This document shows, in pieces, positions 1 to 41,049 of a DNA stretch of 43,991 nt (positions are counted from its first letter, which is position 1; each line of letters opens with the position of its first letter). This DNA is from Nitrospirota bacterium (GTDB lineage Bacteria; Nitrospirota; Thermodesulfovibrionia; UBA6902), in assembly GCA_011040095.1 (NCBI GenBank), contig DRDE01000314.1, forward strand, positions 1 to 43,991. Direction: 5' to 3'. A program made the translations under genes and the position numbers. The notes beneath the pieces are model-generated. The model was given only the letters and a program-made list of their open reading frames with translations, was not told the origin of the DNA and did not search any database.

Positions 1-2480
1 ATAATATGATCCTCTGTATCTATACCTTCAAATGTCAATTTGTATACAGCCCAGAATCCGCTTTTACCGAGGTAAGGCTCGATTTGAGAAACTTTATGCC
101 CGCCCTTTGTATAACATAATGTAATAGAATGAATACGTTCTGATGATTCGGTCTTTAAGTTGTTTATAATATCTTTCACCATTGGATGTCTGAGATGCAA
201 TCTCTCGGCGTCAATATCTTTATTGTGCCTGCCGACATAATAATATCCGCGGCTCATACTCTCTTTGCCCGAAATGCTGAATGATCCGGGCGCTGGATCA
301 ATCTTTAAGAGATAGCAGGCATTTGACAATTTGTATTCAGTCGGGCATAAGCTGCTTATTATTAATTTTGCAAGCATTATGTCCAAAGCACTCAAATCCT
401 GCTTTATTTTATTGTCAATTACTTTGAATCTTGCCCTGACCTCATCATCAAAGTTTTCAAGAAGCTTGGACCTTGTTTCTATTATTTTTTTATTGATCTG
501 TTCCGCAAGCTCTGCCTGGAGTTTATCGAATGCCTTATTGATTTCATCATCTGTGCGGCAGGACTGATATATGTCAAGAATGCGTTTCTCGAAATCAACG
601 CCCGAGCCTATAGAGCCAAGTATTTCATCCGAAGCGCCAAACAAGCCGCTGAAAAGTCTGAACTTCTGGTCAAGGAGTTCATATACCCTGCAGTCAGCGG
701 CAATTTTCCTGTTCAGGAAATTAAGAGCAATCACATCATATTTCTGCCCGTACCTATGGCATCGTCCTACTCTCTGCTCTATTCGCTGCGGGTTCCAGGG
801 GAGATCAAAATTTATAACAAGGTTGCAGAACTGAAGGTTAATGCCTTCTGCCCCGGCTTCAGTGGTAAGGAATATCCTGGTATGACGGTGAAATTCATGA
901 ATTAATGCGTCTCTGATCGCGACCGCCCTTGATATGTATCCTCCTGTTTCATGATGCGGTCTTTCTTTCACCCATCTGTCATAAGCCCTTTTGGCTGTTA
1001 CACCATTATTTGAGCCGTTAAAGACTGTTATCAACTCCTTATATCCATTGTCGGAAAGCAGATTGAAAAGATACTCCTGCGTCCTCCTTGACTCTGTAAA
1101 TATGACCGCTTTCTCATGCCATCCCATTTTCCTGCAGTGGGCAAAAGCCTTGTCCAGAGCAATAAGCAGTGCATCCCCCTTTGATGTCTTCTGAATGGAT
1201 TCGGCAAGGTTCCGCATATGAATCAATTCGCTTTTTTCAGCCTCCAGCTCTTCCTCTGTGAAAAATCTCCCGTTTGCGTTTTCAGTGTCTATATCTCCAG
1301 TTTCTACAGGTTCTGTATCCTCTCTTTTGGCGATTTCTTCGGATTCTTCTTCATAGCCGTCAACATCATCAAGCAATTCACTTATCTGAATGGTTTTTTG
1401 ATCGGATAACAACTTGTTAATATTGTTAATCAGCCCGTTAAGCGTTTTTGCAATCGCAAAACTTGAACTCGCAAGGATTTTCCAAAAAACCAATATTAAA
1501 AGGTGACGATATTTCGAGTTTATAGCTGCAACATCGGGCCTTCTCAAATACTCTGAAACAAGTTCATAAAGCTCGGCTTCATCATCAGTCGGCGTAAAAT
1601 CCTCTACCATTGACAAACGGTTTGTGTAGCGGACATATTCCTGAACCTGCCGCCTGAGAGTCCGCACCGCAATACCCGATATCCGTTCTTTTAAAGTCTC
1701 CTCATTTACAGACTCACGCCCGTTGTTGTCTGCCAGAAACATCTTTCTGAACGAATATTCAGAGCCAAAGGTCTTGTCTTCAATAAAACTCACCAGTCCA
1801 TACAGTTCCATCAGGGAATTTTGCAGCGGAGTTGCTGTCAGGAGAAGCTTGGGAATTCCGGCGAATAACTTTTTAAGCGTCCTGGCCTGCTTGCTGCCGG
1901 ACTTTTTATAAACATTCCTCAGGCGGTGCGCCTCATCTATTACCACCAGGTCCCATTTACCCACTGCCGCAATTTCAGCGCTTTTTGAATAAGCAAAGGG
2001 GATGGAAACAATAACGACTGCATTTCTTTTAAAGGGGTTTGTTTTTCCGTTTTTTTTAGACGCCCGATATTCGAATCCGTCAACTATAACACCCGGCACG
2101 TCAAACTTTTCGCGCAGCTCATTTTGCCACTGCTGACGTATGGGCGCCGGTACTACAGCGATAATCTTTCGTTTACCTTCCGCCCATAACTGGCTGATCA
2201 CCAGTCCCGCTTCAATAGTCTTTCCAAGGCCGACTTCATCGCAGAGTATTGCCCCGCGCGACATCGGAGATTTAAAGGCAAAGAGCGCCGCATCTACCTG
2301 ATGGGGATTCAGGTCAACCATTGCTGCTGAAAGAGGGGATTCCAGTTTCTTCAGATCATGCGCTGCCCGTTTGAGTGTGAGTTCATGGGCGGTTATGATT
2401 TGGTGGAAAAGGGGGAGTATCTTGAAATTATCACAATAATCGTCAAGTCCTTGGCGTGTACTGCCTGATGATTTCTTCAT
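1..2480 (-). CDS. SNF2-family (RapA/Rad54-like) helicase/ATPase, N-terminal >826 codons; ORF runs off the left edge of the window
   Basis: Absent from the ORF track because there is no stop inside the window. My own translation from the ATG at 2478-2480 stays open to position 1 (MKKSSGSTRQGLDDY...). Helicase motifs: I CDEVGLGKTIEAG, II VVIDEAHRLRN, III LLLTATPLQNSLMELY, V TTEAGAEGINLQ, VI DLPWNPQRIEQRVGRCHRYGQ. The short + strand ORFs at 331-1911 are its shadows. Confidence 0.85.
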   Translation of the reverse strand, partial: MKKSSGSTRQGLDDYCDNFKILPLFHQIITAHELTLKRAAHDLKKLESPLSAAMVDLNPHQVDAALFAFKSPMSRGAILCDEVGLGKTIEAGLVISQLWAEGKRKIIAVVPAPIRQQWQNELREKFDVPGVIVDGFEYRASKKNGKTNPFKRNAVVIVSIPFAYSKSAEIAAVGKWDLVVIDEAHRLRNVYKKSGSKQARTLKKLFAGIPKLLLTATPLQNSLMELYGLVSFIEDKTFGSEYSFRKMFLADNNGRESVNEETLKERISGIAVRTLRRQVQEYVRYTNRLSMVEDFTPTDDEAELYELVSEYLRRPDVAAINSKYRHLLILVFWKILASSSFAIAKTLNGLINNINKLLSDQKTIQISELLDDVDGYEEESEEIAKREDTEPVETGDIDTENANGRFFTEEELEAEKSELIHMRNLAESIQKTSKGDALLIALDKAFAHCRKMGWHEKAVIFTESRRTQEYLFNLLSDNGYKELITVFNGSNNGVTAKRAYDRWVKERPHHETGGYISRAVAIRDALIHEFHRHTRIFLTTEAGAEGINLQFCNLVINFDLPWNPQRIEQRVGRCHRYGQKYDVIALNFLNRKIAADCRVYELLDQKFRLFSGLFGASDEILGSIGSGVDFEKRILDIYQSCRTDDEINKAFDKLQAELAEQINKKIIETRSKLLENFDDEVRARFKVIDNKIKQDLSALDIMLAKLIISSLCPTEYKLSNACYLLKIDPAPGSFSISGKESMSRGYYYVGRHNKDIDAERLHLRHPMVKDIINNLKTESSERIHSITLCYTKGGHKVSQIEPYLGKSGFWAVYKLTFEGIDTEDHI

Positions 2481-2487
2481 GAGATAT

Positions 2488-4083
2488 TCACGCCCCGCTT
2501 TTTAGGTGATAGTTCTGTTTCATTATTAATATTTTTTCAAATAAATCCATGCACTTTTTATAGAGAAAAGAGTCTGTTGGGGTTATGCCTGTATCTGCTT
2601 GTAATTTATCCAAAGTTTCCTTCTGGGAATGACTTTCAATATTTTTCATTATTTCTGCTAAACCGATTCCGGCATATAGATACGGCTGGAGTTCTTCCAA
2701 CTCGTCTATAGATAAGATAATCCATGATGGGGAATTAATGTTATGCGTGTTATTAAGCAATTTATTTACATGCTTCTCAAACAAGAAAGAGTTTATGAGG
2801 TAAAACGACCCAAAAGAAACGAAAACAGATATGACTTTTGAACAATCATGAAATTCTTCAAGCCCTTTTGCCTTTGTAAGAATTGCATTTCTAAATTCAT
2901 GAAGTCCAACCAGCCCTTTTATAACCTGTTTTAAACTATTATTAATATCCTCTTCTGAGGCAGTTGTTAGAGCAACCCTTGAAAACTTTGTTGCCTTTAC
3001 TTGAAAAATAATGGCCGTATCCCCTTCGACTACAACCCAGTCAGGTAGTTTCCCTTTTTTGTATTTTCTCTTAATCATATCTTCAGAGTATATCTTGCAT
3101 CTATTTATTGAGTTTTCAAGAATTATCCCCACATACTCTTCAAATATAAGTCCGAACCATTGTGAAAACTCTTCTAAATAATTATTGAACATTTGATAAT
3201 AAATACCCGTTGATATTCTGTAGCATATAAGATTGGGAATGGGTGCAGTTAATCTGTCAGAATCCATTCCTAACAAGGGGCTGTCTTTCCATGGCCTTAT
3301 TATAGGATAGGAAAATAAAGGATTAAAATCGTATGCTCTGAATCGTCTGTCTCTGTTTTTGCGGTTTTCAAAAACTCCTCGGAACTGTGTAGGTGTGGCC
3401 GAAACATTATTTAAAATAGTTACGGTAGTGTCGTCATCAGGAAGTTTTAGCCCTTGTTGTCGGGCGACTTCAAAATAGCCTCTTGCAAATCCTGCTTTGC
3501 TTTGTGCGGCAGACCAGGCAACCAGTCCAATCGACAAAAAATCTTCAAGTGTTGCTCCGGTTATCTTTTGAAATTCAAAATGAAAATCAAACGCTGGGAC
3601 ATCTTTCCTTTTTTCAGCCCTTTTTATTGCTTCACCATAGAGAATCAGGGTTTGAGAGTAAGAAGCATAGGGATTGACGTTGTAGGAAAACTGGCTTGCT
3701 GAATGTCTCAGAGAAAGGAAGATCGGATTTTCTTCTTTGAATTTTTCAGCGAGTTCTTTATCAAAAGTAATTGGATCAGCTAACAGATAGTTTGTAACCA
3801 GCATTTCAAGCTGGGACAATGCATACAAGTCAAAGACCTTTCCATTTCTGTGAGGATTTGTAAAGCGAACAGCAAAAGAGGCGATACCAGCAGCAGTAAA
3901 AAATGGCAGACCCTTCGGAAGAAAGCGGTGGATATCAGAATTTGGATTTTCTAATTCTTTCAGTGCATTATTTACAGATATAAGAATATCATTTGATTTA
4001 AATTTTCTTATCTCATGTTTTATCCTGCTCTCAAGTTTATCTATATTTAGAGAGCCATTGCTATTAAAAAAAGTTTTATCCAA
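2488..4083 (-). CDS. Hypothetical 531-aa protein with a putative PD-(D/E)xK-like nuclease core (E...D...QxK)
   Basis: Long intact ORF. Its stop is 7 nt before the SNF2 start, and its start overlaps the PIN gene stop by 8 nt. Core pattern: FGLIFEEYVGIIL (helix with E), KLPDWVVVEG (D at a strand start), AIIFQVKATKF (QxK). The function is inferred from this pattern only. Confidence 0.6.
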   Translation of the reverse strand: MDKTFFNSNGSLNIDKLESRIKHEIRKFKSNDILISVNNALKELENPNSDIHRFLPKGLPFFTAAGIASFAVRFTNPHRNGKVFDLYALSQLEMLVTNYLLADPITFDKELAEKFKEENPIFLSLRHSASQFSYNVNPYASYSQTLILYGEAIKRAEKRKDVPAFDFHFEFQKITGATLEDFLSIGLVAWSAAQSKAGFARGYFEVARQQGLKLPDDDTTVTILNNVSATPTQFRGVFENRKNRDRRFRAYDFNPLFSYPIIRPWKDSPLLGMDSDRLTAPIPNLICYRISTGIYYQMFNNYLEEFSQWFGLIFEEYVGIILENSINRCKIYSEDMIKRKYKKGKLPDWVVVEGDTAIIFQVKATKFSRVALTTASEEDINNSLKQVIKGLVGLHEFRNAILTKAKGLEEFHDCSKVISVFVSFGSFYLINSFLFEKHVNKLLNNTHNINSPSWIILSIDELEELQPYLYAGIGLAEIMKNIESHSQKETLDKLQADTGITPTDSFLYKKCMDLFEKILIMKQNYHLKSGA

Positions 4084-4573
4084 TTTTTTTCAATCTCTTT
4101 AGAAACTCAATCAGAATTTCTTCTCTTATTCGATATCCCTTTTGCATTAAATCGAGTGATAATAATTCCGTAGTTTCCCGGTCAATCATACCGGACTTAA
4201 AAGAATCCCATAATATACCGAGAGTCCCCTTTGTTTTTAATCCCCTGAATCTGGCGACAGTCCTTGCTTTTGCTTCATCTATTAGAACTATGCCGATCTT
4301 ATTTCTGACAGCAAGACTTATAACAGCTCTTTCACCGGAGCCGAGAAAGTGCGGCAGGTTTTTTAAAAGAGGAGTTTTCACAGCCTCTATTTTTCTGCTA
4401 TCAAGATAGTGTATTATCTGTTGTGCATCTTCTTTTCGGAGCTTGAGACCTCTTGCAATTTCTGCTTCTACCTGTGATGGAACATAAAGTTTGAAATTAT
4501 CAAGAAGTTCGAGCCTGTTTATCTTTCCGAGAAATATCAGAGGGGAAGCATTGCAAACCACCCTATCAGGCAT
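4076..4573 (-). CDS. PIN-like DUF3368-family toxin, partner of the UPF0175 antitoxin
   Basis: The track ORF is 4076-4654. The likely true start is the internal ATG at 4571-4573 (MPDRVVCNASPLIFLGKINRLELL...), which overlaps the upstream stop as TAATG. Family-typical segments: NASPLIFL, GSGERAVISLA, VLIDEAKAR, KGTLGIL. Confidence 0.75.
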   Translation of the reverse strand: MPDRVVCNASPLIFLGKINRLELLDNFKLYVPSQVEAEIARGLKLRKEDAQQIIHYLDSRKIEAVKTPLLKNLPHFLGSGERAVISLAVRNKIGIVLIDEAKARTVARFRGLKTKGTLGILWDSFKSGMIDRETTELLSLDLMQKGYRIREEILIEFLKRLKKIG

Positions 4574-4854
4574 TATCTTATATCCTCTGCAAGCTCTTCC
4601 ATTGAATAGTCTATATGTATGTCCGCTTTCTTTATTTTCTCTATCATCTCCCATATGTCTATTGAAAGCATTCCAGCGGCTTTCTGAAGGGTTATCTTCC
4701 GGCTTCTGTAAAGTTGAAGGACATTTTTTTCATTTAAAACGAGAAGTCCCTGTTTTAACGCCTTTGGTATGATGTCCTGGACTTTTACACCATATGTTTT
4801 AGAGACTCGTTCAGCTTCTTTGTATAAATTTTCTTTTAGTTTTACAGACTTCAT
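4573..4854 (-). CDS. UPF0175-family antitoxin
   Basis: 93-aa ORF. The C-terminal LQLYRSRKITLQKAAGMLSIDIWEMIEKIKKADIHIDYSMEELAEDI matches the usual UPF0175 pattern (LY..g.iSlgkAAe....s..ef...l.k.gi......eel.eDl). It is coupled to the DUF3368 gene. Confidence 0.75.
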   Translation of the reverse strand: MKSVKLKENLYKEAERVSKTYGVKVQDIIPKALKQGLLVLNEKNVLQLYRSRKITLQKAAGMLSIDIWEMIEKIKKADIHIDYSMEELAEDIR

Positions 4855-4866
4855 TTTATCCCTCCA

Positions 4867-5118
4867 TTAATTGAGCTTCTTCTCGAAGCCAATCATTTCG
4901 TTTTCAGGCACTGCGTTTATTACATAGCCGCATTCTGAAAGATAATCATCAAGTGTCCCCATTTCTTTCATCTCGGCAAACTGTATTTTTACCACCTCAT
5001 CAAGGTTGGCTTTTGCCTCTTCAATAGTCCGCCCCTGAGCAATAAAATCCAGTTCAGGGATTTTGGCTATACACCATTCCCCTTTCTGCCATAACTCAAT
5101 CGTTGATTGTAATTTCAT
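4867..5118 (-). CDS. HicB-like (UPF0150) antitoxin-fold protein, with no adjacent HicA
   Basis: 83 aa. ELWQKGEWCIAKIPELDFIAQGRTIEEAKANLDEVVKIQFAEM fits the HicB N-terminal fold pattern (..g.w.A.vPel.g..tqG.TleEA..nl.eai). Confidence 0.65.
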   Translation of the reverse strand: MKLQSTIELWQKGEWCIAKIPELDFIAQGRTIEEAKANLDEVVKIQFAEMKEMGTLDDYLSECGYVINAVPENEMIGFEKKLN

Positions 5119-5181
5119 TTAAACCTCCCGACAGTTTTCCATTATGGCCGTTATCAAGCGCTTATTAATTATATCAAAGAG

Positions 5182-8100
5182 TTATGAATCTATCATTTCT
5201 CCGTTTTCGTTGTTGTCTAAATCACTTTGGACGAATGTATCCTTATATTTTTCAAAACCTGTACCCGCAGGGATTAACCGCCCCATAATGACATTTTCTT
5301 TTAATCCCTTCAGGTGATCAACATCTCCTTCAATAGCCGCCTCTGTTAATATCCTGGTTGTCTCTTGAAATGACGCTGCTGATATCCAGCTATTTGCTGA
5401 CAAAGCTGCTTTAGTGATTCCAAGCAACACTGGCTGACCAACTGCCTCTTTTCCACCATCTAATGAAACAACGACATTTTCTTCGAGAAATTTACGTCTT
5501 TCTGTAATTTCTCCCATCAGAAACATAGTGTCGCCTGGAGCTGTGATCTTTATTTTTTCAGTCATTTTTCTGATGATAATTTCAAAATGCTTATCATTAA
5601 TTTTGATATTATTCGCTTTATACGTTTTTTGAAGTTCGTTCAGGAGAAATAAATGAACTTCTCTTCCCCCTTTATCGTTAAGTATTTTATGTGGGTCTAT
5701 CAAAGTTTTGTCTTTCGGCCTTCTTGCCTCAAAAAGTTCGATAATTCTGAATAAATCAATGACGGGCATTTCATCTTCTGTCTCACATCTGCCTGATCTG
5801 CGGCTGTTCAAAACAAACTGTGTTCCGGGTTCTCCTATTGACTGGGCTGCCAGGATTCCGACAGCCGTGCCTGTTTCAACTGTCCTGCCGGTTGATAAGT
5901 CCCGACCATAACATCTTGCGCATACGCCGTTTTCGGAAAGGCATGTAAGAACAGACCTTGCTCTCACCTTTTTAATGCCGGCATCGGTTATTCGTCTGGC
6001 AACGCTATTAGTAATTTCTTCGTTTAATCCCAGTATAACTTCCCCTGTTTCAGGATTCCGTATCTCCTCGGCCGATATGCGTCCTGTTATTCTGTCATCA
6101 AGCTTATGAATAATTTTTTTATTTACAACTATTTCATCTAATGTAATTCCGTCTCCTGTGGCGCAGTCTTCTTTTTGAATAATAGTGTCCTGTACCACAT
6201 CTATAAGCCTTCTTGTTAACCATCCGGCATTTGCAGTCATCATCTCTGTATCAATAATACTGTTTCTCGCTCCGGTAGATAACATAAAATATTGAACAGG
6301 TGAAAGACCTTCCTTAAAATTTGCCGTAATAGGATACTCCATAAACTTTTCCGAAGGCTTCACTATATGTCCCGGCACCATTCCGGCAAGCCTTATTAAC
6401 AGGGCAGCAGAGTTTTTTGCGCCTGAGTTGATCATCATATGAATGTTGTTCCCTTTGTCCTTCTTAAGTTCTGTCACTATTTCATTGTTTATAATTCCGG
6501 CAGCTTTTTGCCAAGTCTCTGTAACAGCATCTCTTCGCTCTTCAGTGGAAATGGTTTCATCATCTTCACTTTCATTTGCATTTATGAACCCGTATACATG
6601 CTTCTGGGCATCTTCAACTACCGCCTGTTTACATGAGGGTACACGTATATCATCCATGCTTATAGATATGCCCGATCTTGTGGCATACTCAAATCCGATC
6701 CTCATGAGACGGTCAAGGACTTCGGCTGTGTCCTGTCTGCCGAAATCGTTATGCAGGAGCATCACAATTTCTTCAAGACAGTTTTGTGTCACTGTCCGGT
6801 TTACTTTTTCAAAAGGGAACCCGCATGGGAATATATCATACAAAATGACCTTGCCTGCGGTAGTATCATGAAGACTCTCCTGTATTCTAACTTTTATCTT
6901 TGAGTGCTCATTTATAAATCCTGAATCATAAGCGTGTCTTACTTCATCGGCGCTGGAAAATACGGATGGGCAGGTCTCAGCGTCAGGCATATCAGCCGTT
7001 AAATAATAGATACCGAGAAGCATGTCCTGTGTCGGCATTGCGGCAGGTTTGCCGTTTGCAGGGTTTAAAATAGTGTTAACAGACATCATCAGCGCCCTTG
7101 CCTCTACCTGCGCCTCTATTGATAAAGGAACATGGACAGCCATCTGGTCACCGTCAAAGTCAGCATTGAATCCCTTGCATACAAGCGGGTGCAGCTTTAT
7201 CGCCTTACCCTCAACAAGTACCGGGTCAAATGCCTGCATTCCGAGACAGTGAAGAGTCGGCATTCTGTTAAGAAGCACAGGATGTTCCCTGATGACTTCA
7301 TCAAGGCAGTCCCAAATGATATCCTCTCCACGTTCAACGACTTTCTTGGCAGCTTTGATCGTGGTGACAAATCCTTTTTCTTCAAGTTTGCTGAATATGT
7401 AAGGTTTAAACATTTCAATGGCCATTTTCTTCGGCAATCCACACTGATGAAGCCGTAGTGCCGGGTCCGGCACGATGACGGACCTGCCGGAGTAGTCAAC
7501 TCTTTTACCGAGAAGGTTCTGCCTGAAGCGGCCCTCTTTACCCTTTATCATGTCGCTTAAGGACTTAAGCGGCCTCTTGGTTACTGCCTTTAGTACACGG
7601 CTCCTCCTCCCGTTGTCAAAGAGTGCGTCAACAGCTTCCTGGAGCATCCTTTTTTCATTTCTGATAATGACACTGGGGGCATTCAGTGCCATCAGTCTTT
7701 TCAAGCTGATATTTCTATTTATAACCCGTCTATAAAGATCGTTTAAATCTGAAGTGGCAAACCGTCCGCCTTCAAGCGGTACCAACGGTCGAAGGTCAGG
7801 TGGCAACACGGGAATAACGTCCATAACCATCCACTCCGGTCTGTTCCCTGATCGTCTGAATGCCTCCACAACTTTTAATCTCTTTGCAAGTTTTTCTTTC
7901 GTGGTTTTGGCATTTGTCTGTCGTATCTTTGCTCTAATGTCTTTTGCCAGAGTATCAAGGTTAATCTTTTGCAGGAGTACTTTTACCGCTTCAGCGCCAA
8001 TACCTGCCTTGAATTTATCGCCGAACTCCTGGACCCTTTTTCTGTATTCCTCACCTGTCAGAAGTTCTTTTTCTTTTAACTTTGTTTCACCGGGGTCAAC

Positions 8101-8538
8101 GACTATATAACTTTCAAAGTAAAGCACCGTTTCAAGCTGGCGCATGGTCATGTCAAGCAGTGTACCGATAATATTTTGACGACCTTTCCAGTACCATATA
8201 TGGGCAACAGGTGTGCACAGCTCTATGTGACCGAGCCTTTCACGTCTTGCCTTTGCCTGTATGACCTCAACCCCGCATTTGTCACAGACAACCCCCCTGT
8301 GTTTCATTCTCTTATATTTGCCGCATATGCATTCCCAGTCTTTGACAGGACCAAATATTTTTGCACAGAAGAGCCCATCACGTTCAGGCTTGAAAGTTCT
8401 ATAGTTTATGGTTTCCGGATTTTTTACTTCTCCATAAGACCATTCCCTTATTTTTTCAGGAGAGGCGAGGCTTATCTTAACCGCATTAAATGTCGTTAGA
8501 TTTTTGGGCTTTTCAAATATTGAGTAGATATCTTCCAT
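5182..8538 (-). CDS. rpoC: RNA polymerase beta-prime subunit paralog: orphan (no rpoB adjacent) and divergent in the trigger loop, F-loop, bridge helix and jaw
   Basis: 1118-aa ORF. N-terminus FNAVKISLASPEKIREWSYGEVKNPETINYRTFKPERDGLFCAKIFGP; Zn ribbon CICGKYKRMKHRGVVCDKCGVEV; catalytic NADFDGDQMAVHVPLS; C-terminal FQETTRILTEAAIEG...KENVIMGRLIPAGTG. Divergences are listed in the findings. Confidence 0.9.
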   Translation of the reverse strand: MEDIYSIFEKPKNLTTFNAVKISLASPEKIREWSYGEVKNPETINYRTFKPERDGLFCAKIFGPVKDWECICGKYKRMKHRGVVCDKCGVEVIQAKARRERLGHIELCTPVAHIWYWKGRQNIIGTLLDMTMRQLETVLYFESYIVVDPGETKLKEKELLTGEEYRKRVQEFGDKFKAGIGAEAVKVLLQKINLDTLAKDIRAKIRQTNAKTTKEKLAKRLKVVEAFRRSGNRPEWMVMDVIPVLPPDLRPLVPLEGGRFATSDLNDLYRRVINRNISLKRLMALNAPSVIIRNEKRMLQEAVDALFDNGRRSRVLKAVTKRPLKSLSDMIKGKEGRFRQNLLGKRVDYSGRSVIVPDPALRLHQCGLPKKMAIEMFKPYIFSKLEEKGFVTTIKAAKKVVERGEDIIWDCLDEVIREHPVLLNRMPTLHCLGMQAFDPVLVEGKAIKLHPLVCKGFNADFDGDQMAVHVPLSIEAQVEARALMMSVNTILNPANGKPAAMPTQDMLLGIYYLTADMPDAETCPSVFSSADEVRHAYDSGFINEHSKIKVRIQESLHDTTAGKVILYDIFPCGFPFEKVNRTVTQNCLEEIVMLLHNDFGRQDTAEVLDRLMRIGFEYATRSGISISMDDIRVPSCKQAVVEDAQKHVYGFINANESEDDETISTEERRDAVTETWQKAAGIINNEIVTELKKDKGNNIHMMINSGAKNSAALLIRLAGMVPGHIVKPSEKFMEYPITANFKEGLSPVQYFMLSTGARNSIIDTEMMTANAGWLTRRLIDVVQDTIIQKEDCATGDGITLDEIVVNKKIIHKLDDRITGRISAEEIRNPETGEVILGLNEEITNSVARRITDAGIKKVRARSVLTCLSENGVCARCYGRDLSTGRTVETGTAVGILAAQSIGEPGTQFVLNSRRSGRCETEDEMPVIDLFRIIELFEARRPKDKTLIDPHKILNDKGGREVHLFLLNELQKTYKANNIKINDKHFEIIIRKMTEKIKITAPGDTMFLMGEITERRKFLEENVVVSLDGGKEAVGQPVLLGITKAALSANSWISAASFQETTRILTEAAIEGDVDHLKGLKENVIMGRLIPAGTGFEKYKDTFVQSDLDNNENGEMIDS

Positions 8539-8705
8539 TAATCATCCCCTTATTTGCAAGTATCCAGATTTTAACATAAAGAAGGTAATAGAAAGGAAGA
8601 AAAAGCTTTACATCCAGAGTTCCAATTTGCCTTGATTGTGTAACATATTGTATGTTTTCTTGAAGAGTACATAACAAGACTAAAGATATTTGGATTGCAA
8701 AACTT

Positions 8706-10331
8706 ATGAAGATCAACAATGCAAAAGACATTCATAAATATGTTGAGGCCCTTATTAACAACATGCCTTTGTTTAAAATGCCAAGATATGAAGCATTACT
8801 CCACGTCCTGCGAACGATGGAGGCGCTTTTTACACGTGGAAGTATATCTGAACGCTCGGAAGCAAATCTTATTATGGCTAACAGGGCTTTCCAGGATATA
8901 CTTCGTTATATGGTTTATTGGACTTACAGTATATGTCCTGAAGGAGGCAAGATTTTGTCAACGCCAGCTAACTGTAAAGAGATGATTAAAGAAACAATCG
9001 AGATTGCAGAAAGTTACAGTAAAGTTTTTGACTTTATAAAAGCGGAAGAAATGGGAGATGTGTCATTTAATATTAATAAGCACTCCAAAATTATAGGAAT
9101 TGAGTACTTGAATGAAGAAGCGGGTAGATCGTTTGGTCTTCATGAATTTTTTAAGGGGAAAGAGTTAGGTAATCAATCTAAAAATTTCTTTGGCAATGAA
9201 TCCGGAAACATGGAAAATATGTTAAAAGCTAAGGAAGAAATCGAAAAATCTATTAAAATCAAGAATAAGAAAGAATTCATTTATTCGCGAAGTAAGTTTG
9301 TTTTTAAGACATTTGAGGAATTATCTGAAAATATTATTTCACAGATGTTTTTGATGCCTGAAGGATGGTCATTGGGGTTTTATACAATTGGCAATTTTAA
9401 ACTTTTCTGGAAGCATCTCTTGAAAATCGCAATAATTCATCAAGTAGCCTTCATAAGTTATGTAGAGAAAATGATTAAAGGTAATAAAAACATATCATAT
9501 GATAATGCTGTACGCTGCGACAATAAAAAAGATTTAGTTAATCATATTCATATGTATTCCGGGCTGGAGAAAAAAGTTATTAATAACATCATACAAGACT
9601 TGATTTATGATAATGCAGTGAAATGGACTGATATCATGTTTCAGCCGCTTTTTCAAATTGAAAATAAAATTATTTTTTCTCCAAACGTAATTGTTGGGAG
9701 TAGAGCAGAGAGAAATATTAATGTCTTAATGAGTAAAATTAATCCAACAGCATATAATGATCTAACATCTAATAAAGAAGATGGGATGATTTCTGAATTC
9801 AGTAACACTTTGAGAGAGAACAGATATTTTTTCGAACCAAGAGTAAAACTAAAAGAGGATGATAAAGTTATTACAGACATAGATATTCTTGTGTGGGACG
9901 AGAAAAAAGAAAACATCTTATTAATGCAATTAAAGTGGCTTTATGGTGCTGATGCGACTCAGGAAATTTACAATCAAGATAAAGAATTTGCAGCAGGAAT
10001 TGCTCAAGTAAAAAAGTCTGTGAATTTTATTAAGAGAAATTCTTCATATCTATCAAGATTTGGACTACGCCCTAATAACGTTTTCGGTATTGTTATTAGT
10101 AAGCTTGGTCTTCCAAGCCCTTTTCTAAATAAAGAAAATGTCATATTGGTTGAATCCGAGCAAATAATAGAAAATCTTAAGGCTGTTCCCGGCAATATAA
10201 AAAAACTATATACCTTCCTCGAACAATCTTCATTACCCAAAAAGGAAATAGCTGAATGCACATTGAATGTTAAGGAAAAAATAATCGGTCAATACACTTT
10301 CCGATTACCTGTTGTTTCATGCAAGGTTTGA
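8706..10331 (+). CDS. Hypothetical 541-aa protein with a putative PD-(D/E)xK-like nuclease core; distant paralog of the 531-aa protein
   Basis: Long intact, very AT-rich ORF divergent from the rpoC paralog. Core pattern: GMISEFSNTL (E), VITDIDILVWD (D), ILLMQLKWLYG (QxK). It shares FxPLF and post-core motifs with ORF 2488-4083. Confidence 0.6.
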   Translation: MKINNAKDIHKYVEALINNMPLFKMPRYEALLHVLRTMEALFTRGSISERSEANLIMANRAFQDILRYMVYWTYSICPEGGKILSTPANCKEMIKETIEIAESYSKVFDFIKAEEMGDVSFNINKHSKIIGIEYLNEEAGRSFGLHEFFKGKELGNQSKNFFGNESGNMENMLKAKEEIEKSIKIKNKKEFIYSRSKFVFKTFEELSENIISQMFLMPEGWSLGFYTIGNFKLFWKHLLKIAIIHQVAFISYVEKMIKGNKNISYDNAVRCDNKKDLVNHIHMYSGLEKKVINNIIQDLIYDNAVKWTDIMFQPLFQIENKIIFSPNVIVGSRAERNINVLMSKINPTAYNDLTSNKEDGMISEFSNTLRENRYFFEPRVKLKEDDKVITDIDILVWDEKKENILLMQLKWLYGADATQEIYNQDKEFAAGIAQVKKSVNFIKRNSSYLSRFGLRPNNVFGIVISKLGLPSPFLNKENVILVESEQIIENLKAVPGNIKKLYTFLEQSSLPKKEIAECTLNVKEKIIGQYTFRLPVVSCKV

Positions 10332-10391
10332 ATTAATTTGTAAAATTATATAATATTCCCCCAAAACTGGAGGGAGTAATAAGGTGGAAAC

Positions 10392-10637
10392 TTAGCCTGT
10401 CAAAACCCGAAGGAGGAAAGACAGGATGAAAAACATACGAAATATAGTGCATAAGGCAAAGGGATCAGGATTGATTTTGGGGAGATCTATGGGGAGTTTT
10501 ATTTTACCCTTTACAGCCCGTTTGGCGCCGGGGCAGATCAAGACATGATGAGAGCCTTGTTTCCGTTTATATTTGCAGCCGTATAGCTCAAATATCTTTA
10601 ACTGTATTTTCCAGTCCGTAGGGAATATTCTCGGCAT
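10392..10637 (-). CDS. HicA-like toxin with an atypical, possibly degenerate C-terminal half
   Basis: The N-terminal KIFELYGCKYKRKQGSHHVLICPGAKR matches the HicA/YcfA pattern (..L...Gf...rqkGSHhvl..pg..r). The remainder (KGKIKLPIDLPKINPDPFALC...) does not look like HicA. The ATG directly abuts the TAA of the HicB relic. Confidence 0.45.
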   Translation of the reverse strand: MPRIFPTDWKIQLKIFELYGCKYKRKQGSHHVLICPGAKRAVKGKIKLPIDLPKINPDPFALCTIFRMFFILSFLLRVLTG

Positions 10638-10905
10638 TTACGCAACCTGAACCAATTTCTTCTCGAACCCGATCATTTCGTTTTCAGGCACTGCGGTATC
10701 GTCTTTAATTACATAACCGCATTCTGAAAGATAATCATCAAGTCCCCATCTCTTTCATCTCGGCAAACTGTATCTTTACCACCTCATTAAGATTAGCTTT
10801 TGCCTCATCAATAGTCCGCCCCTGAGCAACAAAATCCAGTTCCGGAATTTTGGCTATGCACCATTTCCCCTTTTGCCATAACTCAATAGTTGCCTGTAAT
10901 TTCAT
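10638..10905 (-). pseudogene. Frameshifted second copy of the HicB-like gene
   Basis: Nucleotide-level copy of 4867-5118. It has a 2-nt deletion (catcaag--tcccca versus catcaagtgtcccca) that creates ...AEMKEMGT-stop, and a 9-nt in-frame insertion near the 3' end. Confidence 0.7.
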
Positions 10906-10981
10906 TATAAGCCTCCTTAAATTTATATATTCTGATTATACAAAAATTATCGAGCGCGTCACTCTTTCTTTTTGCCATACA

Positions 10982-11348
10982 CTATACGATATCCTCTGAA
11001 AGGTCTTCCATTGAATAGTCTATATGTATATCAGCTTTCTTTATTGCGTAGCCCGGGTTTAATACCCCGCCCCTTGGGGCGTTCATTGCTTTTAAAGATA
11101 CCCCGTCCGCTTGCGGCGGGGTAGTTCATTTTATCTATCATCTCCCATATGTCTATCGAAAGCATTTCAGCGGCTTTTTGAAGGGTTATCTTCCGGCTTC
11201 TGTAAAGTTGAAGGACATTTTTTTCATTTAAAACGAGAAGTCCCTGTTTTAACGCCTTTGGTATGATGTCCTGGACTTTTACACCATATGTTTTAGAGAC
11301 TCGTTCAGCTTCTTTGTATAAATTTTCTTTTAGTTTTACAGACTTCAT
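10982..11348 (-). pseudogene. Second copy of the UPF0175 antitoxin gene, interrupted by an 85-bp palindromic element; no PIN partner
   Basis: The first 60 codons are identical to 4573-4854 and only 2 of the first 73 differ. The track ORF 11031-11348 reads through into the insert. After the insert the original frame resumes (KKADIHIDYSMEDLSEDIV-stop at 10982-10984). Confidence 0.75.
11046..11130. repeat. REP/MITE-like insertion made of two GC-rich hairpin units
   Basis: Present in copy 2 of the UPF0175 gene and absent from copy 1 at the homologous point (ctttatt|ttctctatcatc). Units: ataccccgccccttggggcgttcatt and ataccccgtccgcttgcggcggggtagttcatt. Confidence 0.65.
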
Positions 11349-11431
11349 TTTATCCCTCCCGATGGAATAAAAGATGAGGTTTTAGGAGAAGAGAGAGGGA
11401 GTTCAGATAGGCGCTTATCCGATTAGCTTTT

Positions 11432-11707
11432 TTATACTACTTTAACTTTTAATTGTCTTCCAAGGGCTTGAGCAAATTTCTCTAATGTTGATAGACGAAT
11501 ATCTTCAGAGTGATTTTCAATTCTGGAAATTGCAGACTTCTTTGTACGCAGTTTTTTTGCTAATTCTTCTTGTGTGATTCCTGCCTTTTCTCTTGCCATC
11601 TTAAGGGTCACTCCTATTTTAAAATCTTGATATCCAGCTTCAAAATCCTTTGTAAATTTCCGGCTTTTCTTTTTCCGTTTACTTATGTATTTTTCAAGAT
11701 CATCCAT
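11432..11707 (-). CDS. XRE-family HTH antitoxin (HigA-like), partner of the Gp49/RelE-type toxin
   Basis: 91 aa. MAREKAGITQEELAKKLRTKKSAISRIENHSEDIRLSTLEKFAQALG is a classic Cro/C1-type HTH. Confidence 0.8.
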   Translation of the reverse strand: MDDLEKYISKRKKKSRKFTKDFEAGYQDFKIGVTLKMAREKAGITQEELAKKLRTKKSAISRIENHSEDIRLSTLEKFAQALGRQLKVKVV

Positions 11708-11754
11708 TATTTTTCCTCCTGTTTATATAATCACGCTTTCGTATTTCCGCAAGC

Positions 11755-12057
11755 TCAATTTCTTTTTTTTGGTGTTTTCCGAGACTTCTTTTGAAATCCA
11801 TGTGTTAGAATAATTAAATTAGCCCCATCATTAAAACCGAGAAACCTGTAGATATTATTTCCAACCTGCACTCTAACCTCCCAAATGCCATCTGTATTAA
11901 TCAGTTTCTTAAAATATGACCTTGGAACATCATCAAAATCTCTTATTATTCGTAACACCCATGCAACTTTTTTTACTATTTTGTCAGGCAAAGTATCCAG
12001 GAAATTTTCAACAGGACACTTGCCGGATACCGTTTTATAAAATACAATTTTACGCAT
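11755..12057 (-). CDS. Gp49-like (DUF891) RelE/HigB-superfamily toxin; C-terminus apparently truncated by a frameshift in an A8 run
   Basis: [43 protein letters not shown] fits the family pattern (lwElR......yRil.f.....ivllhgF.KKtqktPkk). With one fewer A, the -1 frame continues as [20 protein letters not shown] and ends in an ATGGATGA overlap with the antitoxin start. Confidence 0.75.
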
Positions 12058-12061
12058 TTAT

Positions 12062-12091
12062 AATGTTAACACTAATGTGAACATTTATCAA
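12062..12091 (-). promoter_or_regulatory. Possible promoter/operator of the Gp49-XRE cassette
   Basis: On the minus strand: TTGATA (12091-12086), a 17-nt spacer, TAACAT (12068-12063), then ATG 5 nt later. No SD is visible, so the mRNA may be leaderless. An inverted repeat aatgttaac-N6-gtgaacatt (12062-12085) overlaps the spacer and -10. Confidence 0.3.
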
Positions 12092-12126
12092 GGGAAAATA
12101 TTTTGAAAGATAAGGATATCTATTCG

Positions 12127-12285
12127 ATAATGGCCGTTATCAAGCGCTTATTAATTATATCAAAGAGTTATAAATCTATCATTTCTCCGTTTTCGTTGTT
12201 GTCTGAATCGCTTTGAACGAATGTATCCTTATATTTCTCAAAACCTGTACCCGCAGGGATCAACCGCATATGTCCCGGCACCATT
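12127..12285 (-). pseudogene. Deletion remnant of a second copy of the rpoC paralog (3' end plus downstream spacer)
   Basis: 12127-12267 is a near-identical copy (a few mismatches) of 5141-5281. It is followed directly by 18 nt (12268-12285) identical to 6365-6382. The junction is in frame: MVPGHM-RLIPAGTGFEKYKDTFVQSDSDNNENGEMIDL-stop. Confidence 0.8.
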
Positions 12286-12450
12286 TTATAGCATTCATAG
12301 ACAACATGCTAAATTAATGAGCACAGTGTTCAAATGTTGACCGTTTTTTGTTATTGCCACCCCTGAAACCGGAGTTTTTTAAAGGGTTTTTTCGTTTTTT
12401 CTTCGGCATGGATATTGCATTTTCCATCTTTGCTACAACTAATAAAGTTT

Positions 12451-12975
12451 ATGAGTAAAAAGGCTTACAACTCGCTGATCAACCGCCGCCTTGTCCTTAA
12501 GATCATAGGATTCGGCTCTTTTTTTATTACACTCGGGATAGCCGTTATCGGGTCAATCAGGTTTTTATACCCGCGGGTGCTTTTTGAACAACCGCCTACA
12601 TTTAAAATCGGTTCCCCCGCTGAATTCAAAATTGAAGCAGAACCCGATAAAAATGGAATATTGCGCGTATATGAAGCATGGAAAAAAGAACATTCGGTAT
12701 GGATAGTAAGGGGAAAAAGCCGCATATACGCGCTGCATTCAAAATGCACTCATTTAGGCTGCACCCCGAACTGGTTTGCAGACCAAGGGGTGTTTAAATG
12801 CCCGTGTCACGGCAGCCGGTTTTACAGCAACGGGGTTAATTTTGCAGGCCCTGCTCCAAGGCCCCTTGACAGATTCAGGATTTATGTAAACGGGGAAGGC
12901 ATTATTACTATAGATAAAAGCATGGTGTATACCTATAAAGATTTCGATAAGACGGGAGCTTACCTGGAGGTTTGA
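12451..12975 (+). CDS. Rieske [2Fe-2S] subunit of a cytochrome bc-type complex
   Basis: CTHLGC...CPCHGS Rieske boxes. The N-terminal NRRLVLK followed by a hydrophobic stretch looks like a Tat signal/anchor. The track ORF begins at TTG 12415; ATG 12451 is preferred. Confidence 0.85.
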   Translation: MSKKAYNSLINRRLVLKIIGFGSFFITLGIAVIGSIRFLYPRVLFEQPPTFKIGSPAEFKIEAEPDKNGILRVYEAWKKEHSVWIVRGKSRIYALHSKCTHLGCTPNWFADQGVFKCPCHGSRFYSNGVNFAGPAPRPLDRFRIYVNGEGIITIDKSMVYTYKDFDKTGAYLEV

Positions 12976-13938: not shown

Positions 13939-14055
13939 GTAACTATTCAGGCAGGCACAAAGGCACAAAGTGAAAAAAAGAATGAAAAAGTTTTCTTGTA
14001 TTTCTGTAACCCTTTGTGCCTATGTGCCTTTGCCACTTTGCACCTGAGTAGTTAC
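13939..14055. mobile_element. MITE family A, copy 1 (117 bp, 13-bp terminal inverted repeats)
   Basis: gtaactattcagg...cctgagtagttac. The interior is a long imperfect palindrome rich in ggcacaaag units. A reverse-oriented copy lies at 40792-40900. Confidence 0.8.
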
Positions 14056-28337: not shown

Positions 28338-28483
28338 AGTGTCTGTTTATAAATTGCCGTTTTTTTGTTTTTGTCATACCCGAAGTCTGTAATCGGGTAT
28401 CCAGAAGTCTTTAAAAACACTGGATTCCCGCCCAAAGGACCGCGGGAATGACAGCTTAATTATTGAGTTTATGGACAGACTCT
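28338..28483. mobile_element. MITE family B, copy 1
   Basis: Terminal inverted repeats agtgtctgtttataaa / tttatggacagact. Internal hairpins: cccgaagtctgtaatcggg and ggattcccgc...gcgggaatgaca. Related copy at 37974-38114. Confidence 0.65.
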
Positions 28484-28541
28484 ATTTAATATGTTACGAA
28501 TTATTATCTTAATTCCCTTTTCGCCAAACAGGAACGAATAA

Positions 28542-40791: not shown

Positions 40792-40900
40792 GTAACTACT
40801 CAGGTACAAAGTGGCAAAGGCACATAGGCACTTAGGGTTACAGAAATACAAGAAAAGTTTTTCATTCTTTTTTTCACTTTGTGCCTACCTGAATAGTTAC
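40792..40900. mobile_element. MITE family A, copy 2 (opposite orientation to copy 1)
   Basis: The reverse complement aligns along its length with 13939-14055, including both termini (gtaactactcagg...cctgaatagttac). Confidence 0.8.
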
Positions 40901-41049
40901 GATTCAATAAGAAAGAATAGGGGTAATATATAGATGGAGTTATTAATGAAAAAGGCTTTTATTAAGGAAACATATCAAGCCTCAATAAATCCCTTTAAAT
41001 AATAATTATATTCCTGTATAATAATTATCACATTAAATATATAATTCAG

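Follow-up and report, generated by a model that had tools for sequence, protein, structure and literature searches.

A beta-prime paralog and an SNF2 ATPase at the ends of a candidate conflict cassette in Nitrospirota

The DNA analysed here, referred to as the window, is the whole of the 44-kb contig C314 of a metagenome-assembled genome (G000; 2.76 Mb, 79% complete), and the names attached to relatives of the beta-prime protein of this genome point to the Nitrospirota, order Thermodesulfovibrionales. At one end of the window are six minus-strand genes, encoding in order a paralog of the beta-prime subunit of RNA polymerase (RNAP), a HicB-like antitoxin, a UPF0175 antitoxin-like protein, a DUF3368/PIN-like toxin candidate, a protein of 531 amino acids (aa) with a predicted nuclease fold, and an SNF2 ATPase. 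The six genes make up a single copy of a mobile cassette, the ends of which are the beta-prime paralog and a dedicated SNF2 ATPase and the middle of which is exchangeable. The most likely reading, with about an even chance, is that the cassette serves in conflict or defence and is new. The observations behind this reading are the linkage of the two end genes across loci, their co-diversification, purifying selection, the different sites at which the cassette is inserted and its residence in defence hot spots.

Linkage of the end genes across loci

The order of genes in the cassette is invariant: the paralog is followed by one or more toxin-antitoxin (TA) pairs, then by between zero and three variable genes, and then by an SNF2 gene with a product of approximately 1000-1180 aa. 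The SNF2 gene is present in all 13 loci having enough downstream DNA, namely those in G000, its congener and sister species G001 (Bacterium BMS3Abin06, 92% complete), G378/L040, G110/L025 (G110 also being labelled G041), G383, L041, L042, L070, L147, L148, L149, L180 and a contig of ERZ27247924; two further contigs end too early. These loci, in which the cassette has a length of approximately 8-9 kb, span at least three genera and two families of a single Nitrospirota class, and the cassette has so far been seen only in Thermodesulfovibrionia-type Nitrospirota. A census of 390 genomes of the class found the paralog in five, representing 3 of 164 genera and 2 of 22 families. When the wider SNF2 family was surveyed at 80 metagenome loci, the paralog was encountered only alongside SNF2 proteins at 67% identity or above.

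The end genes are never apart in the 13 loci, which provide at least five different flanking contexts, despite the turnover of the genes between them. In L040 the cassette separates an ABC ATPase gene from its FtsX permease genes; a Peptidase_M24 gene is found on opposite sides in L041 and L042 as compared with L149; GAF and response-regulator genes flank the cassette in L148, and further loci have other flanks. The trees of the two ends also correspond, in that the clade of paralog C-terminal halves (C-halves) and the clade of cassette SNF2 proteins branch alike, with G000 and G001 basal in both. The linkage of the paralog to the SNF2 gene is not a chance juxtaposition. A preliminary description of this DNA, made from the sequence alone, had proposed that the six genes represent a functional module, and had named a lack of synteny in any other genome as one finding that would speak against it; the paralog-SNF2 pair is instead syntenic in other genomes. 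What stands of that proposal is the conserved and co-inherited pairing of paralog and SNF2 ATPase (13 of 13 loci), while the 531-aa nuclease-like protein is not part of the core.

The beta-prime paralog and its SNF2 partner

Protein families were assigned using Pfam, PADLOC and NCBIfam with its equivalog cut-offs. The paralog (1118 aa; 5182..8538, minus strand), the invariant 5'-end gene of the cassette, matches all five Rpb1 domains of Pfam and scores 1468 bits against the rpoC equivalog model (rpoC_TIGR, TIGR02386; cut-off 963.5), the match falling into two stretches. The housekeeping cluster rplKAJL-rpoB-rpoC of G000, in which beta-prime has 1364 aa, is located on a different contig, C104, which also carries the only match to rpoB in the whole assembly. 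The gene of 1118 aa is therefore a real paralog, as had been described, and it is not linked to rpoB in this genome. Much else about the protein resembles RpoC. The Mg-binding motif NADFDGD is invariant in the paralogs except for that of G001, where a change of N to H gives HADFDGD; the zinc cysteines are kept (C70/C72/C85/C88-type and C792/C866/C873/C876), as are switch 2, the clamp coiled-coil region and the C-terminal region H.

The differences from RpoC extend beyond the separation from rpoB. The paralog is without both the SI3 insert (approximately 230 residues, inside the trigger loop) and the jaw (approximately 55 residues), which are present in the housekeeping beta-prime of the lineage, and has an altered trigger loop and a diversified bridge helix. 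The motif TQLTMRTFH of the genuine trigger loop is TQFVLNSRR in the G000 paralog, which does not have the catalytic Met-Arg...His by which the trigger loop of RpoC is recognised. Each of the nine paralogs has Asp or Asn instead of the Arg, a change that, like the SI3 and jaw deletions, is common to all of those compared, and the His is kept in seven of the nine, being lost only in G000 and G001, which belong to the same genus. A deletion of the trigger loop was considered as an alternative description and dropped, because alignment with beta-prime chains that have no SI3 reveals a loop of normal length with altered residues. The term 'catalytically eroded', used in the preliminary description, therefore fits the trigger-loop substitutions and the loss of SI3 and jaw, but not the intact NADFDGD. 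Most paralogs also contain an insertion of approximately 100 residues after the position equivalent to residue ~404, just before the active-site domain (L025 3416-7072; P0102, P0105, P0108 and P0110); it is present neither in the G000, G001 and L041 copies nor in any genuine beta-prime.

The history of the gene differs between its halves. Residues 1-505 of the G000 paralog are approximately 87-90% identical to the beta-prime of the same genome, as against 35-56% for the remainder. A search with the C-half retrieves nine further proteins at 47-53% identity with end-to-end coverage, compared with 42-46% identity and only 66-75% coverage for genuine beta-primes. In the tree of C-halves the nine paralogs (G000 and eight others) form one clade, with a support of 100 by SH-like approximate likelihood ratio test (SH-aLRT), which is sister to the genuine beta-primes of the class. 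In the tree of N-terminal halves (N-halves; residues 40-400) the paralogs do not fall together: the G041 paralog pairs with the genuine beta-prime of G041 (support 99), and those of G000, G001 and L040 nest within the genuine clade of their family (support 95-96). The G041 paralog and genuine gene share an exact stretch of 110 nucleotides (nt) as well as other patches of 100% nucleotide identity, a pattern that gene conversion would leave. In G000, the N-halves of paralog and genuine gene are 77% identical in DNA, but only 52% identical at third codon positions, hence any conversion there is old. Judged from these trees and alignments, the paralog is a mosaic, composed of a C-half that belongs to one old clade and an N-terminal portion of approximately 500 residues that follows the beta-prime of each host.

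Both halves have been subject to purifying selection, since the ratio of nonsynonymous to synonymous substitution (dN/dS) between the G000 and G001 paralogs is 0.12 in the N-half and 0.27 in the C-half, at a dS of approximately 0.33. Despite C-half identities of only 45-57%, eight copies retain intact open reading frames (ORFs) of 1118-1232 aa. The window sequence from 5231 to 8709 is 90% identical by blastn to G001:C47 34797-38273, this alignment including the region upstream of the paralog (8539..8709, minus strand), which is common to G001 and beyond which, at 8709, similarity ends; the 166 nt upstream of the paralog are 97% identical. Taken over the whole cassette, similarity between G000 and G001 runs from 171 nt upstream of the paralog to approximately 40 nt past the SNF2 stop codon, and the flanks are unrelated. 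No conserved sequence is common to the upstream regions of different cassettes.

Some of the assemblies have irregularities around their beta-prime genes. In G041 rpoB is joined directly to the paralog (C135), and the genuine beta-prime begins another contig at codon 40 (contigs C135, C108 and C14). The arrangement is ambiguous, as the 110-nt exact repeat lies at the join in both G041:C135 and ERZ27247924; the first 40 codons after rpoB look canonical, and on C14 there is another beta-prime start that has an upstream region of its own. The order of rpoB followed by the paralog was not relied on as a real arrangement in either assembly, owing to the repeat and the canonical-looking codons, and in G041 it is probably a mis-join caused by the paralog. 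The G041 bin also holds a third full-length beta-prime (C195 1946-5824), only 48% identical, which is probably on a contig from another organism. In the G001 assembly the broken paralog was found and no genuine rpoC, rpoB not having been searched for in that genome; the housekeeping rpoC is presumably absent from the bin.

The SNF2 gene (3..2480, minus strand) is the invariant 3'-end gene of the cassette, and the window holds the part encoding the N-terminal 826 of 1003 aa. Leftward extension of the contig, which had been put forward as a check, locates the 3' end on G000:C335 (228-759), a contig that overlaps window positions 1-227 exactly (227 nt); the full length of 1003 aa is that of the joined sequence. 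The protein contains DEAH and QRxGRxxRxGQ motifs and matches SNF2-rel_dom and Helicase_C. Between G000 and G001 its dS is 0.086, against 0.33 for the paralog (window 1-2417 and 5182-8538, respectively). This implies that the cassette is itself a recombinational mosaic, apparently with a recent exchange of its SNF2 end between the G000 and G001 lineages. The SNF2 proteins linked to cassettes form one clade (SH-aLRT 99) with mutual identities of 61-88%, compared with identities of 37-49% to relatives that are not accompanied by the paralog.

The closest models to the cassette SNF2 are those of DrmD, from class 1 DISARM (DrmD, DrmMI, DrmA, DrmB and DrmC). Its best PADLOC model is DrmD (PDLC02619, E 1e-196), while with NCBIfam it scores 649 bits against DISARM_DrmD_b (NF038318; cut-off 950, E 9e-195) and 264 bits against NF038317 (cut-off 610). 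There is also a likeness in context, as distant SNF2 relatives in sister genomes adjoin large N6_N4 methyltransferases, and SNF2 homologs in relatives lacking the paralog are found next to large DNA methyltransferases or unrelated genes. However, the DrmD_b score is under the cut-off, the cassette proteins are a separate clade, and no DrmA, DrmB, DrmC or methyltransferase is found in or beside the complete cassettes (G001, L040, L041, L025, L147, L149 and L180). Membership of DISARM was thus rejected on the grounds of score and missing partner genes; from the sequence comparisons, the cassette SNF2 clade is sister to DISARM-type DrmD.

RapA/HepA, to which the preliminary description had likened the protein, offers a different parallel, namely an SNF2 ATPase that is genetically tied to the large subunit of RNAP, and it is from this analogy that the idea of polymerase remodelling would be borrowed. 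The identification itself does not hold. Against RapA (NF003426; cut-off 576) the score is only 161 bits, on which ground membership was rejected, and what aligns is confined to the ATPase core, namely residues 36-211 together with another ATPase stretch. The C-terminal third of the cassette SNF2 is instead predicted to consist of an alpha/beta domain and a long coiled-coil hairpin of approximately 115 residues. A fold search with the C-terminal 353 aa, modelled with a predicted local distance difference test (pLDDT) of 81, returned only generic coiled-coil hairpins and is uninformative about partners. Prediction of a complex between paralog residues 506-1118 and SNF2 residues 640-992 gave a score of 0.00, which amounts to no verdict and is used neither for nor against an interaction.

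Exchangeable genes and the surrounding island

The 531-aa protein (2488..4083, minus strand, TTG start) is optional cargo of the cassette. It matches no Pfam or PADLOC family, and scores 95 bits against the GapS1 subfamily of NCBIfam (E 4e-27; cut-off 320). Its predicted structure (pLDDT 92.9) comprises a helical N-domain and a PD-(D/E)xK nuclease domain, with fold matches to N.BspD6I (Z 10.7), Upx (9wuf, Z 10.6) and FokI (Z 8.3). The PD...ExK core is shared with GapS1 and Upx, but the cassette protein has one nuclease domain rather than the two of Upx, and the window copy carries Gln at the position of the catalytic Glu. Across the family D348 and K363 do not vary, whereas position 361, that of the Glu in ExK, is Glu in 41 of 43 relatives and Gln in the window (E361Q), so that this copy is possibly inactive. 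By profile and predicted fold, the protein is a distant GapS1/Upx-like relative; both Upx (PMC13099982) and GAPS1 (bioRxiv 10.1101/2023.03.28.534373) are published as single-protein anti-phage nucleases.

The preliminary description had treated the 531-aa protein as a component of the module, but it is found in only four loci (G000, L025, L070 and ERZ27247924). Elsewhere its slot is filled by an unrelated 478-aa protein (G001), by DUF4238 or by proteins of 137-312 aa of unknown type, and it is empty in L148. Neither BLASTP nor profile comparison detects similarity between the 531-aa and 478-aa proteins. Relatives of the 531-aa protein also stand alone, with neither paralog nor SNF2, and the family was discarded as a marker of the cassette since it occurs in this manner and was not found in 40 relatives with this query.

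The TA genes are similarly interchangeable. The HicB-like antitoxin gene (4867..5118, minus strand; weak UPF0150 match, E 1e-3) has no HicA partner in this copy, while HicB is followed by HicA in the G001 and L040 cassettes. Next are the UPF0175 antitoxin-like gene (4573..4854, minus strand; Pfam E 1e-11, PADLOC PDC-S70) and the DUF3368/PIN-like toxin candidate (4076..4573, minus strand; PADLOC PDC-S70, E 4e-31; weak Pfam DUF3368 match, E 3e-4). The longest ORF of the latter spans 4076..4654, and family matches begin at residue 28-31, Met28 corresponding to the ATG at 4573; this is the likely start of the gene, giving a 1-nt overlap with the UPF0175 stop codon. The two are adjacent genes of matching type II TA families that both hit PDC-S70, the toxin activity being predicted, and the pair recurs behind the paralog in L025, L041, L042, L146 and L180. 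Among cassettes the pair may be UPF0175/DUF3368, HicB/HicA, or a small ORF with a VapC-type PIN protein.

ORF calls agree with the earlier coordinates for all six minus-strand genes and reproduce the spacings between them (63 nt, 12 nt, a 1-nt overlap at TAATG, an 8-nt overlap and 7 nt). The claim that no junction contains a terminator was also supported, no terminator-like hairpin being found at the minus-strand junctions of the six genes. A promoter-like site, ATGATA-17-TATAAT with TG (5168..5196, minus strand), precedes the HicB gene and lies over the paralog stop codon. It is a match to consensus only, which recurs in a duplicated segment at 12182-12154; promoter-like matches overall are at the level expected by chance (36 found, 34 expected).

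The cassette is carried on an island, as had been suggested. The window contains 1..12476 of this element, which continues to nt 2046 of C335, includes a HigB/HTH pair after the SNF2 gene on G000:C335, and has a Mo-oxidoreductase gene on one flank and Rieske/cytochrome b genes on the other. The site is empty in the sister species, where the flanks are only approximately 130 nt apart (G001:C63 4708-7412 and 7543-8836), and this defines the island in G000 as 14.3 kb in length. The site of the G001 cassette is, in turn, occupied differently in G000: the same flanks (C171/L179 450-9170) enclose a GmrSD_N fragment, KilA-N and a 1033-aa SIR2-STAND-TPR protein, and the slot also holds an N6_N4 methyltransferase with a BstXI endonuclease. 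Its cargo is exchangeable, and the site is a hot spot for defence genes. Judged by its different insertion sites and its rare, patchy distribution, the cassette is mobile.

Further along the island is a degenerate second cassette (10392..12267, minus strand), which forms direct repeats with 4571-5281 at 88-98% identity and in which the gene order matches that of the G001 cassette. It consists of a 3' fragment of the paralog (12123-12267; 97% protein identity to paralog residues 1087-1117), a Gp49/HigB-like toxin (11755-12057) and an HTH_3 protein (11432-11707), both assigned by Pfam, copies of UPF0175 (11031-11348) and HicB (10657-10906), and a HicA-like gene (10392-10637), all on the minus strand. 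Between the complete and degenerate cassettes is a plus-strand ORF of 541 aa with 30% GC (8706..10331). It has no Pfam, PADLOC or NCBIfam match, and no profile similarity to the 531-aa family; its look-alikes in the Atlas by language model score 0.94-0.98, some having Upx-like, NERD or Hjc domains, and it has a TM score of 0.57 to an Upx-like cluster. This ORF is probably another recently acquired nuclease-type defence gene.

No tRNA is found in the window. A dispersed repeat of approximately 117 nt is present at 13939-14055 and again at approximately 28348-28488 and 40792-40902, with more than 40 copies across the contigs of G001 and related pieces elsewhere in the window and on C335; it looks like a repetitive extragenic palindrome (REP)- or miniature inverted-repeat transposable element (MITE)-like element.

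Interpretation and alternatives

The conflict-cassette reading can be given a mechanism, in which the paralog would replace beta-prime in a fraction of the RNAP core of the cell. The host-like N-half, the zinc sites, region H and the Asp triad would have been kept because the paralog enters the core; the N-terminal half of beta-prime is taken to make most of the contacts with beta and sigma. RNAP bearing the paralog would be slow or prone to stalling, and would have neither SI3 nor the adjacent jaw, to which T7 Gp2-type phage inhibitors are known to bind. The SNF2 protein, as a motor, would then act on the variant polymerase, or on the DNA held by it, in the manner of RapA or Mfd on stalled RNAP, and the two together would sense or resist the takeover of transcription by a phage or plasmid, with the embedded toxins and nucleases as independent or downstream effectors. 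The cargo, including GapS1/Upx-like nucleases and DUF4238, supports a defence context. The specific proposal of an RNAP catalytic subunit remodelled for immunity, whether as a sentinel polymerase or a look-alike, matched to its host by gene conversion and, together with an SNF2 ATPase, detecting or withstanding interference of phages or plasmids with transcription, is put forward tentatively and is more doubtful than the conflict-cassette reading as a whole.

Several observations weigh against this interpretation. Every locus belongs to a single class, and shared descent could account for some of the synteny. Local support for splitting up the paralog N-halves is strong, but an approximately unbiased (AU) test gives no formal rejection of their monophyly (p = 0.076). 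The paralog is split or broken in G001, G383, L147 and L149, four of the copies that can be judged (the split or broken copies are at L147 1-2599, L149 451-3295, L019 10752-14104 and L172 11194-14506). The G001 gene has a TAT-to-TAG change at codon 537, preceded by an intact N-terminal ORF of 536 aa, and a 1-nt deletion at codon 869 that is confirmed in an independent run at a depth of approximately 500x; L147 and L149 are split at about the same point, near residue 440. Split beta-primes are functional in cyanobacteria and archaea, and these copies may represent either decay or split subunits that are tolerated. The G000 copy may likewise be heading for decay, because the trigger-loop His has also been lost in this genus. 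No recombinase families were found among the scanned ORFs of the island, and its junctions have no convincing direct repeat, att-like core or target-site repeat. No RNA runs containing window 1-8700 are listed. Finally, we infer both the entry of the paralog into RNAP and, from neighbouring genes only, the role in defence.

The same data can be viewed in other ways. One is that the cassette is an accessory transcription module, in which the alternative beta-prime alters RNAP under some condition, for instance by altering pausing or by making the enzyme insensitive to inhibitors dependent on the jaw, SI3 or trigger loop, with the SNF2 protein as a RapA-like recycling factor and the TA genes and nucleases as hitch-hikers. 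The score above the rpoC cut-off, the retention of the Asp triad, zinc sites and region H, the trigger-loop His of most family members and the purifying selection on both halves would all suit such a role, and RapA is itself an SNF2 protein that works on RNAP. Yet the replacement of the Arg by Asp or Asn in every paralog, together with the diversified bridge helix, argues against efficient catalysis, the SNF2 protein groups with DrmD-like defence proteins and falls well short of RapA (161 against 576 bits), and the rarity, patchiness, frequent breakage and hot-spot residence of the cassette are better suited to dispensable conflict genes. An accessory module is considered unlikely.

An alternative closer to that of the preliminary description is that the paralog acts outside RNAP as a decoy or guard, its N-half being bait for phage proteins that bind the polymerase, and that binding licenses the SNF2 protein and the toxins or nucleases. 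An N-half that is host-like in each lineage, with conversion tracts in G041, is what bait would require, and the fast-evolving C-half and the intact N-terminal ORF of the broken G001 copy are also in keeping with this role. It is the maintenance of the rest of the protein that makes a pure decoy somewhat less probable again: a C-half dN/dS of 0.27 and the retention of the second zinc site and of region H would be needless for bait, and NADFDGD is invariant but for the one N-to-H change. Region H of the housekeeping beta-prime takes part in core assembly. Neither a phage ligand nor a link from sensor to effector has been identified. The remaining possibility is that a duplicated segment of rpoC landed beside a DrmD-like SNF2 defence gene in an ancestor, and that a functionless duplicate has since decayed, travelling with its neighbour only through the shared mobile island. 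This could account for the four broken or split copies, the loss of both Arg and His from the trigger loop in G000, the E361Q change in the adjoining nuclease, the truncated second cassette beside the complete one and the confinement of all loci to one class. It is nevertheless the least probable of these alternatives and the one most clearly opposed by the data, which do not discriminate among the other three readings, as dN/dS is 0.12-0.27 over a dS of approximately 0.33, eight ORFs remain intact in spite of the divergence of their C-halves, the same SI3 and jaw deletions and Arg-to-Asp/Asn change are found in all copies, and the end genes have stayed together in 13 of 13 loci as flanks and middle genes varied.

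The conflict-cassette reading also has precedents in architecture. Type I restriction-modification and BREX loci have genes embedded between partner genes, and the cassette resembles such islands in having two constant outer genes around a middle that turns over, and in occupying a slot that is swapped with SIR2-STAND and BstXI genes; it differs in having, as one outer gene, a duplicate of a subunit essential for transcription. The statement that no described system has this composition is consistent with PADLOC, NCBIfam and the literature searched, and nothing relevant on rpoC paralogs or other RNAP-subunit paralogs in defence was found in that literature. To our knowledge, no defence or regulatory system containing a paralog of an RNAP core subunit has been described. 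On its gene content, the paralog-SNF2 pair, in which TA genes and an SNF2 gene invariably come after a beta-prime of mosaic history, would accordingly be rated as a new kind of system, with the caveat that the G000 copy bears signs of erosion (the lost His, and E361Q in its neighbour).

One practical consequence is that the paralog, which passes the rpoC equivalog cut-off, will therefore be annotated as rpoC; it can confuse marker-gene phylogenies and estimates of completeness, and may cause rpoB-rpoC mis-joins during assembly. The mosaic history clearly illustrates how one portion of an accessory gene can stay matched to its essential counterpart, and the family would represent a natural experiment in polymerase structure, with neither SI3 nor jaw and with an altered trigger loop. 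RNAP is a prime target of phage takeover. If the proposed interpretation is true, the pairing of a beta-prime variant with an SNF2 motor would add a new type of component to bacterial conflict systems, and a guard or decoy of RNAP itself would be carried on a mobile cassette.

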